Below are positions 6,482 to 6,996 of a stretch of DNA of 64,000 nucleotides, in pieces; position 1 is the stretch's first letter, and every line of letters begins with the position of its first letter. A program made the translations under genes and the position numbers. Origin of the DNA: Schmidtea polychroa (taxonomy: Eukaryota); contig CM097885.1 in assembly GCA_044892525.1 (NCBI GenBank), forward strand, positions 35,590,001 through 35,654,000, written 5' to 3'. Below the pieces are notes generated by a model. It worked only from the letters and a program-made list of their open reading frames with translations, did no database searches and had not been told where the DNA came from.

Positions 6482-6996
6482 TTATTTAAAAAACCGACAT
6501 AAAACATACAAAATAGCAACACCTGTTGCAAGTTTAATATAGTTTTTAAATTTTCTTTTCTGATCGTCTATTTCTTTTGCATTTCTGGCGAGTTGATTGA
6601 GTACGCCCCATCCGCCATTGGCTTCAATCCATGGTTGAAACTTTGACTTGATTATCTAGAAAATAAATATTAATAAAATATAGATTATAAAAGTATTACT
6701 TCTTGAGACCACTGATAATAGTGCTCGGAGTCCCATAGACTTTTTTCAATTATTATCTTCATATAAGCGAACCCTACTAGTATTCGGGTCCACTTCATCT
6801 CCTCGTCGCATAGGTAGTTAAAAATCCTATTAAAATAGAATTTTTTGGTTTCGAGACAATCGGAATTGATCACATCATCATAATCAATGTGATTACCTTC
6901 TATGATCTTTTCGGTTCGATCGACCAGGAAACAGAGGCTTTCCATAATATTCTTGTTGACGAGTTCTCTTAAAAGATTTTCCATAAAATGAGACAT
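6482..6996 (-). CDS. Bcl-2-family protein (156 aa); intron 6656-6699
   Basis: BH1-like LCDEEMKWTRILVGFAY; exon 2 gives BH2 PWIEANGGW and a C-terminal TM anchor LATGVAILYVLCRFFK. Confidence 0.88.

Follow-up and report, generated by a model that had tools for sequence, protein, structure and literature searches.

Homologues of Bcl2 and IAP have been observed in adintoviruses, the animal Polinton/Maverick elements (Starrett et al., 2021; PMC8502044), and the text of Fig. S2 in that study carries three Bcl2 labels in its Beta panel. As far as the available text goes, Bcl-2 cargo on animal Polintons is already known from one sentence and a supplementary map. The main text, as available, contains neither "splic" nor "planaria" nor "Schmidtea", uses "intron" once in an unrelated sense and names no donor gene. 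In planarians, a BCL2-like motif is carried by the Burro giant LTR retrotransposons (PMC6431247), and planarian cell death itself employs Bak/Bcl-2 proteins and cytochrome c release (PMC8998228). Among viruses, herpesvirus of turkeys encodes vNr-13, a two-exon viral Bcl-2 that keeps the exon/intron layout of the host gene (PMC7199394). Almost all animal bcl-2 genes have an intron after the TGG codon of BH2 (PMC7527217), and introners have been reported inside polinton-like elements of dinoflagellates (PMC12166617). Here we describe a Bcl-2-family gene on a planarian Polinton that very probably consists of two spliced exons. No description of the gene, its donor or its intron was found in the literature on Polintons/adintoviruses, planarians and introns (Repbase entries were outside this scope), and the gene is not described in the available portions of PMC8502044, PMC6431247, PMC12166617 and PMC5718144.

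The window analyzed here is a 64,000-nucleotide stretch of the Schmidtea polychroa genome (G000:C1:35590001-35654000), and searches covered the 781-Mb assembly of four very large contigs. On the minus strand of the window, positions 6996-6482 contain what is very probably a spliced two-exon gene. Exon 1 (6996-6700, minus strand) is an open reading frame of 99 codons with a match to PF00452 and comprises helices 1 to most of 6, with a degenerate BH3 region and KWTR at BH1. It is followed by a putative intron of 44 nt (6699-6656), which runs from GT to AG, lies in phase 0 and is 89% A+T. Exon 2 (6655-6482) has 57 codons and a stop and encodes BH2 (W-x-x-x-x-G-G-W, here WIEANGGW), a basic linker and a predicted C-terminal membrane anchor. 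Joined, the exons amount to 156 codons, while the unspliced reading of the first frame stops at 103 aa. The break falls in helix 6, upstream of BH2, and thus differs from the classical Bcl-2 intron site. The 44-nt intron and the BH2 and hydrophobic tail of exon 2 had been named in the original prediction, and all were found again, with splicing deduced from the features set out below. A poly(A) signal AATAAA (6486-6481) overlaps the stop codon; 14 nt further on, at 6467, one contig of run X3 ends in poly(A), and other poly(A)-type ends of this run are at 6072, 5205 and 3505. Upstream of the gene, the sequence contains a candidate CCAAT box and TATA-like box (7027..7056, minus strand), and a CCAAT box also precedes the Bcl-2 gene in three other subfamilies.

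Two further reading frames adjoin the gene. ORF166 (7102-7602, plus strand) is arranged head to head with it, has hydrophobic N- and C-termini with a coiled-coil-like middle, and is absent from the three subfamily-C copies examined. On the other side, an acidic, repeat-rich frame occupies about 6040-6408 on the opposite strand (plus), and the poly(A)-type end at 6072 suggests that a transcript from the minus strand crosses this frame.

Comparison with PF00452 gave collinear matches for the two exons, at model positions 12-66 for exon 1 alone (E 0.01, 16.8 bits) and 86-100 for exon 2 alone (E 0.24, 12.4 bits). Each exon alone stays under the cut-off of 31.4 bits. In close subfamilies, versions of the intron with 42-51 nt are in frame, and reading through them yields 33.4-34.5 bits, which is above the cut-off. 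A profile of 12 exon-1 copies searched against the PDB placed Bfl-1/A1 first (E 2.6e-4), with weaker matches to ASFV A179L, fowlpox FPV039, Bax, Bak and Bcl-xL. The exon-2 profile likewise ranked a Bcl-2 protein first, though weakly (E 0.026). An atlas comparison returned Bcl-2 as top matches (0.93) with recognition below threshold, and we treat it as a lead only. We hold it to be highly probable that the gene yields a spliced protein of the Bcl-2 fold.

The strongest point for the intron is collinearity with a host protein. In a gap-free alignment, residues 10-99 of exon 1 pair with residues 37-126 of a host paralog at locus L115, and residues 1-16 of exon 2 align to its residues 127-142. Since exon 1 ends at host residue 126 and exon 2 begins at 127, the exons abut exactly on the host protein. 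Across subfamilies that are 45-75% identical in exon 1, the break occurs at the same codon. Among the 30 best loci, chosen as best matches, the GT-AG stretch of 44 nt is present in 29, and in the remaining one it is interrupted by foreign sequence; 27 of the 29 have an exon 2 that stays open throughout. When exon-2 starts were located by protein pattern, without requiring an AG, they were found in 45 of 56 rows (none was recognized in the other 11), and all 45 gaps have the form GT...AG. Their lengths of 41, 43, 44, 46, 50, 54 and 70 nt represent all three classes modulo 3. An exact two-flank pattern matched 760 places in which the flanks are 31-60 nt apart and three in which they are 29-30 nt apart, and the resulting 763 are a lower bound for one subfamily (100 of the 760 were listed individually). 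The zero-gap, intronless form of this pattern was absent across the genome, and reversed controls also gave 0. Thus intron length drifts between 29 and 70 nt while GT-AG is kept.

Both exons are under purifying selection. By the Nei-Gojobori method, with many pairs near saturation, dN/dS of the pooled exons was 0.04-0.21 in 11 of 15 subfamily pairs (the other 4 were saturated) and 0.18 in the closest pair (bootstrap range 0.08-0.37). For exon 2 alone it was 0.12-0.44 in 10 of 15 pairs. From these features we infer that the 44-nt stretch is removed by splicing. Among the joints listed from contigs of four runs (15 of 143, all from run X6), the spliced junction 6700/6655 was not seen. One contig of run X3 (6506-6665) extends 10 letters into the intron, may stem from unspliced RNA or DNA, and speaks slightly against splicing; contig 23 of the same run carries a variant absent from the loci analyzed. 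Protein collections hold only unspliced products of 103-112 aa from this lineage, in searches that gave just 1, 2 and 4 relatives. Open reading frame callers shorten the gene to 103 aa and so miss BH2 and the tail.

The integrase gene of the same element has a second predicted intron (2452..2547, minus strand), a 96-nt GT-AG insert in phase 1 that is almost pure (ATT)n. An (ATT)n GT-AG insert of 30-154 nt is present in all 14 copies examined, in two of them with a length that is not a multiple of 3, and an intronless sister family reads straight through the site. It is likely that this insert is a second intron gain in the same lineage. Translated in frame without splicing, it gives a run of isoleucines.

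The carrier is a very abundant Polinton/Maverick (Eupolintoviridae) that encodes capsid genes. A search with exon 1 yielded 150 scored matches out of 2,376 candidates. Twenty are identical in protein, one being the window copy, and a stop occurs in only 3 of the 150. Ten copies were fetched over 20 kb, and integrase, major capsid and pPolB genes were present in all ten, protease and minor capsid genes in nine each. Both AGTAG ends with a matching 6-bp target duplication were found in seven of the ten, at a size of 13.7-19.4 kb. The gene order is terminus, ORF166, Bcl-2, ORF136, ORF101, TBP-like, ATPase, ORF177, integrase, minor capsid, ORF122, major capsid, protease, pPolB, terminus. Pfam matches on carrier genes include rve (E 1.3e-5), DJR-like (E 0.003) and Pox_A32 (E 0.01). 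The sole Pfam match of the pPolB frame is endonuclease-VII, and we take this frame to be pPolB from homology to the 754-aa frame of the window and from its motifs; the protease and minor capsid genes are presumably such, judging by position and motifs. The notion that the Bcl-2 gene is cargo of a capsid-encoding element is thereby upheld by the Polinton gene set of the fetched copies. Between two subfamilies, dN/dS is 0.05 for the major capsid and 0.04 for the packaging ATPase, a conservation that is compatible with a particle stage without demonstrating it. Among 23 pattern matches in viral contigs there was no relative (0), and metagenome contigs searched with P0003, a host orthologue introduced below, had, among the matches listed, one locus with an unrelated Bcl-2 gene.

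Inside the window, the carrier occupies 1807..8394 on the minus strand, with its terminus at 8394 (8381..8394, an AGTAG-type end common to other copies), ORF166, Bcl-2, ORF136, ORF101, TBP-like, packaging ATPase, ORF177 and integrase. The packaging ATPase of this copy is broken near 4025. A 15.6-kb insertion, flanked by a 6-bp duplication of its own, interrupts the element at 1806, and the element's minor and major capsid genes, protease and part of pPolB are located outside the window, 14-21 kb before its start. The insertion (L032, L031) comprises window positions 1-1806 and the preceding 13.85 kb, and sits between the integrase and minor capsid genes. Its ends are of the AGTAG type, its arms, about 5 kb long, are in inverted orientation, and none of its ORFs exceeds 90 aa. 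A similar arm is found at 8391-13388. A TBP-like gene (Pfam TBP, E 1e-14) is present at 4268-4705 (plus) and 24596-24970 (minus) and belongs to both Bcl-2-bearing families. Some subfamilies are mosaic. Between L078-L079 and L084-L085, dS is 0.32-0.44 for capsid and ATPase, 0.52 for Bcl-2 exon 2 and 1.8-2.0 for Bcl-2 exon 1 and the TBP-like gene, while pPolB is saturated, and this contrast suggests exchange of modules between elements. In the 1,369-aa pPolB of the sister family (L078-L079:12726-13301), the initial 50 residues give a match separate from that of the remaining protein, and the leader of this gene may contain further introns.

Three more homologs in the window had been named beforehand, and all exist. 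Copy 2 (34602-35137, plus strand) is 41% identical to exon 1 and has a short deletion before BH1 and a degenerate splice acceptor and BH2. Copy 3 (36766-37250, minus strand), with 50% identity over residues 43-96, is heavily decayed by several stops and frameshifts. Copy 4 (51470-51897, minus strand; 48%, Pfam E 2.2e-5) keeps an open exon 1 and a 41-nt GT-AG intron at the same position; a stop comes early in its exon 2 and the tail is replaced by other sequence. Next to it, at 42249-51327, are what remains of genes for ATPase, integrase, capsid, protease and pPolB. Copies 2, 3 and 4 are thus all damaged and derive from older subfamilies. The count of four copies holds for the window but understates the family, with at least 763 places of one subfamily in the genome, and both exons are open in copy 1 only. 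That the four form one tandem family was rejected, as they are separate, nested insertions. Two more Polinton copies, both with genes for pPolB, capsid and protease, occupy 23303-33663, bounded by inverted repeats, and 42249-51897. Between elements lies a host-like frame of the rhodopsin GPCR family (39570-40622, minus strand; Pfam 7tm_1, E 1.9e-11).

A genome search with PF00452 gave 136 matches, of which the best 30 were read. They comprise eight host-type loci or groups, intron-bearing Polinton copies, one LTR-type match and a second Polinton family whose 144-aa Bcl-2 gene has no intron. Two of three examined elements of this intronless family have inverted ends and a full gene set, and in all three the Bcl-2 gene stands beside ORF136 and TBP-like genes. 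Its protein passes the PF00452 cut-off (32.7 bits) and is 17-21% identical to exon 1 of the window gene. By sequence comparison, the nearest non-element relative of the element genes is the host paralog L115 (G000:C1:268544056-268544481). L115 is single-copy, has a GT directly after the BH2 TGG with the tail exon about 3 kb on, and has no Polinton markers within 40 kb. It is 23% identical to window exon 1 and 44-48% to the intronless family. Within the genome, L115 matches intronless element copies best (48%, E 6.5e-20), followed by intron-bearing ones (E about 1e-11); other host-type loci were not among its 150 scored matches, only the best candidates being scored. P0003 is a 166-aa orthologue of L115 with a tail anchor.

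In trees of 21-22 rows, the element genes were separated together with L115 and P0003 from seven other host rows (support 78/91), and the same grouping was recovered with the long LTR row included (91/90), which suggests that they belong together. Joining the intron-bearing genes to host locus L104 was rejected (p-AU 0.034). A single origin of all element copies was neither rejected nor shown (p-AU 0.104). The intron that splits BH2 after TGG occurs in five of the eight host-type loci and in no element copy examined, while none of the eight has the helix-6 break. Comparison with host Bcl-2 genes, including intron position, thus placed L115 nearest, with a classical intron and none in helix 6, but the joining branch is weak. 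We consider it very likely that the gene was captured from the lineage of the L115 paralog. Because every element copy examined is free of the host's BH2-splitting intron, capture would have proceeded through spliced mRNA. The helix-6 intron was then likely gained on the element, in one lineage. Capture of a spliced transcript and later intron gain in one element lineage would be the simplest history. The reverse, L115 as a domesticated element gene, was rejected, as L115 has the ancestral intron and no element genes nearby. Two other groups of host-type loci are of note. Seven near-identical Bcl-2 loci, L104-L110, are clustered within 0.9 Mb (G000:C4:89.95-90.83 Mb) and have canonical NWGR and no intron after BH2. 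L116 (G000:C1:83221284-83224463) combines a host-type Bcl-2 exon with a TBP-like gene of the Polinton type no more than 1.5 kb away.

Next, we modelled the fold. A model of exon 1 alone was of low confidence (pTM 0.41), with a best Foldseek E of 3.9 and, to helical proteins of unrelated kinds, a best Z of 5.8; we regarded it as uninformative. For the intronless sister protein, modelled from a 16-row alignment that includes window exon 1, pLDDT was 77 and pTM 0.69. This model resembles Bcl-xL (Z 13.7, rmsd 2.5 over 120 residues), its top 37 structural rows are Bcl-2-fold chains, and A179L and BHRF1 match with Z 12.1 and 11.9. Its Foldseek E was 1.2e-4, and viral models (BFVD) matched weakly, at best with E 4.5e-3. 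The Bcl-2 fold was therefore recovered in prediction for the sister protein, as a helical bundle, but the exon-1-only model of the window gene had no clear match. Since the folded sister is only 17-21% identical to exon 1, the fold of the window gene would carry over by homology.

The BH1 tryptophan is invariant in all 16 rows, and the canonical NWGR is changed to KWTR in copy 1 and TWSR in copy 4, exactly as first reported. The corresponding residues are CWSK in the intronless family, RWSR in L115 and KWSQ in P0003. The expectation of an element-specific alteration of BH1 did not hold and was rejected, as the closest host paralog and P0003 also have no glycine. For the same reason the change is probably not a viral invention and was, with some doubt, inherited rather than made on the element. 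Two diverged intronless copies (L165, L168) keep the glycine, so the ancestral state is not certain. Family members without the BH1 glycine are named in the available text of PMC8998228, according to which one placozoan protein that lost it is unlikely to have a functional groove and mouse Boo has an altered selectivity. The tail of exon 2 is hydrophobic with basic residues on either side (mean Kyte-Doolittle 1.75 over 17 residues and 1.31 over 19, the latter compared with 1.83 in P0003). A hydrophobic stretch of 13-17 residues with basic flanks, shorter than that of P0003, is found in the tails of all subfamilies.

We propose that a host-type promoter (CCAAT, TATA-like) would drive the gene and that the host would splice and polyadenylate its transcript. 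The protein would be tail-anchored in the mitochondrial outer membrane and restrain Bak/Bax-like or BH3-only proteins of the host, so that the cell would survive the replication and integration of the element's DNA. Because BH1 has no glycine, we further propose that its binding range may be narrowed or shifted. An anti-apoptotic action of the element's Bcl-2 protein is, in our judgement, somewhat probable. Against it speak the missing glycine, which is tied to a working BH3 groove (PMC8998228, in the part available), the degenerate BH3 region and the short tail. A little above an even chance is also what we give the whole reading, in which a host paralog was captured via mRNA, gained an intron and became a tail-anchored mitochondrial inhibitor of cell death. 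A more far-reaching version is distinctly unlikely. It holds that a planarian Polinton took a non-canonical host Bcl-2 via mRNA and built microsatellite-like introns into its Bcl-2 and integrase genes, and that hundreds of transcribed death-inhibitor copies now set the apoptotic threshold of stem cells.

The alternative that fares best retains the gene and its history and assigns the protein a role outside apoptosis, such as damping of innate signalling, autophagy, ER calcium release or mitochondrial reshaping. Several poxvirus Bcl-2-fold proteins serve such non-apoptotic uses, and A46, A52 and B14 are in the fold list with Z 6.3-7.8. The absent BH1 glycine, the degenerate BH3 and the non-canonical nature of the host paralog itself also point this way. 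However, the best structural matches are pro-survival Bcl-2 proteins with Z 12.7-13.7, well above A46, A52 and B14, and selection keeps BH2 and the tail. In addition, Boo/Diva, which has a serine at the BH1 glycine site, is listed as pro-survival in the accessible part of PMC8998228. We therefore regard a non-apoptotic role as unlikely, if the most serious competitor to cell-death inhibition.

The same fold list contains Bok, Bak and Bax (Z 11-12.4), and the protein could accordingly be a pro-death membrane permeabiliser of their kind or an antagonist of host pro-survival proteins, which aids particle release or removes silencing cells. A placozoan protein with a glycine-less BH1 is classed as pro-apoptotic (PMC7527217, PMC8998228, as far as their text was available), and adintoviruses carry other membrane-active genes (PMC8502044, in the available text). 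But the BH3 motif that killers need is not recognizable here, and the genome carries hundreds of open copies (147 of 150 scored exon-1 matches without a stop), at least one of them polyadenylated. A pro-death function is thus quite improbable. We find equally doubtful that the gene is anti-apoptotic and purely transposon-selected in stem or germ cells, with no particles made and "viral" a matter of ancestry. The very high number of integrated copies and the absence of a relative among viral contigs would agree with this, as would the LTR-type polyproteins of the genome that also have a Bcl-2-like domain (Burro; PMC6431247, in the part available), yet the major capsid and packaging ATPase show strong purifying selection between the two subfamilies compared. 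That there is no splicing at all, with a truncated 103-aa product or an unselected passenger whose downstream frame is a remnant, agrees with the junction missing from the listed joints, the RNA-like X3 contig entering the intron and the unspliced products on record, but is very improbable given the exact abutment on the host protein, the GT-AG kept through length drift and the purifying selection on an exon 2 frame reached solely via splicing.

Inhibition of cell death remains the preferred reading, and purifying selection on the cargo would then indicate that cell death is an obstacle to these elements. This is relevant to the question whether Polintons have a viral or a transposon way of life. 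The donor, an intronless captured form and an intron-bearing derived form occur in one genome, so capture and intron gain can be read directly. If the interpretation of the (ATT)n introns is true, they make intron birth visible on a virus-like genome. Planarian apoptosis and stem cells are accessible to RNAi, and the function of a gene present in hundreds of copies is thus testable.

Compared with known systems, the gene is closest to its host paralog, L115/P0003, with which it shares a gap-free alignment over both exons, the glycine-less BH1 and a predicted tail anchor. In contrast, L115 is single-copy, has the classical post-TGG intron and none in helix 6, and stands apart from Polinton genes. 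Bcl-xL and Bfl-1/A1 resemble the element protein in fold (Z 13.7 for the sister protein), BH2 and tail, with Bfl-1/A1 as the best match of the exon-1 profile; they differ in that NWGR is replaced here, BH3 is degenerate, the protein is smaller (156 aa) and the intron is another one. ASFV A179L, EBV BHRF1, adenovirus E1B-19K, iridovirus Bcl-2 and HVT vNr-13 likewise present a compact Bcl-2 fold on a DNA virus-like genome, but represent independent captures. The analogy to E1B-19K and the herpes and pox vBcl-2 proteins, drawn in the original prediction, is therefore functional only, as the gene's closest relative belongs to the host genome itself. vNr-13 retains the host layout, whereas the element gene lost the host intron and has another. 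Burro is likewise a mobile element with a BCL2-like domain, and in this genome Bcl-2-like matches occur in frames of up to about 3,000 aa, but there the domain lies inside a retrotransposon polyprotein, is very divergent and forms a long branch in the tree. Six such loci (L147, L148, L149, L152, L153, L125), with a divergent Bcl-2-like domain in frames of up to about 3,000 aa and many copies, fit Burro. If the proposed function is true, two unrelated giant mobile elements would have converged on one host pathway. Like the adintovirus Bcl2 (PMC8502044, in the available text), the gene described here is accessory to a Polinton that also encodes pPolB, integrase, capsids, ATPase and protease; unlike it, the planarian gene has two exons, a traceable host paralog and hundreds of copies.
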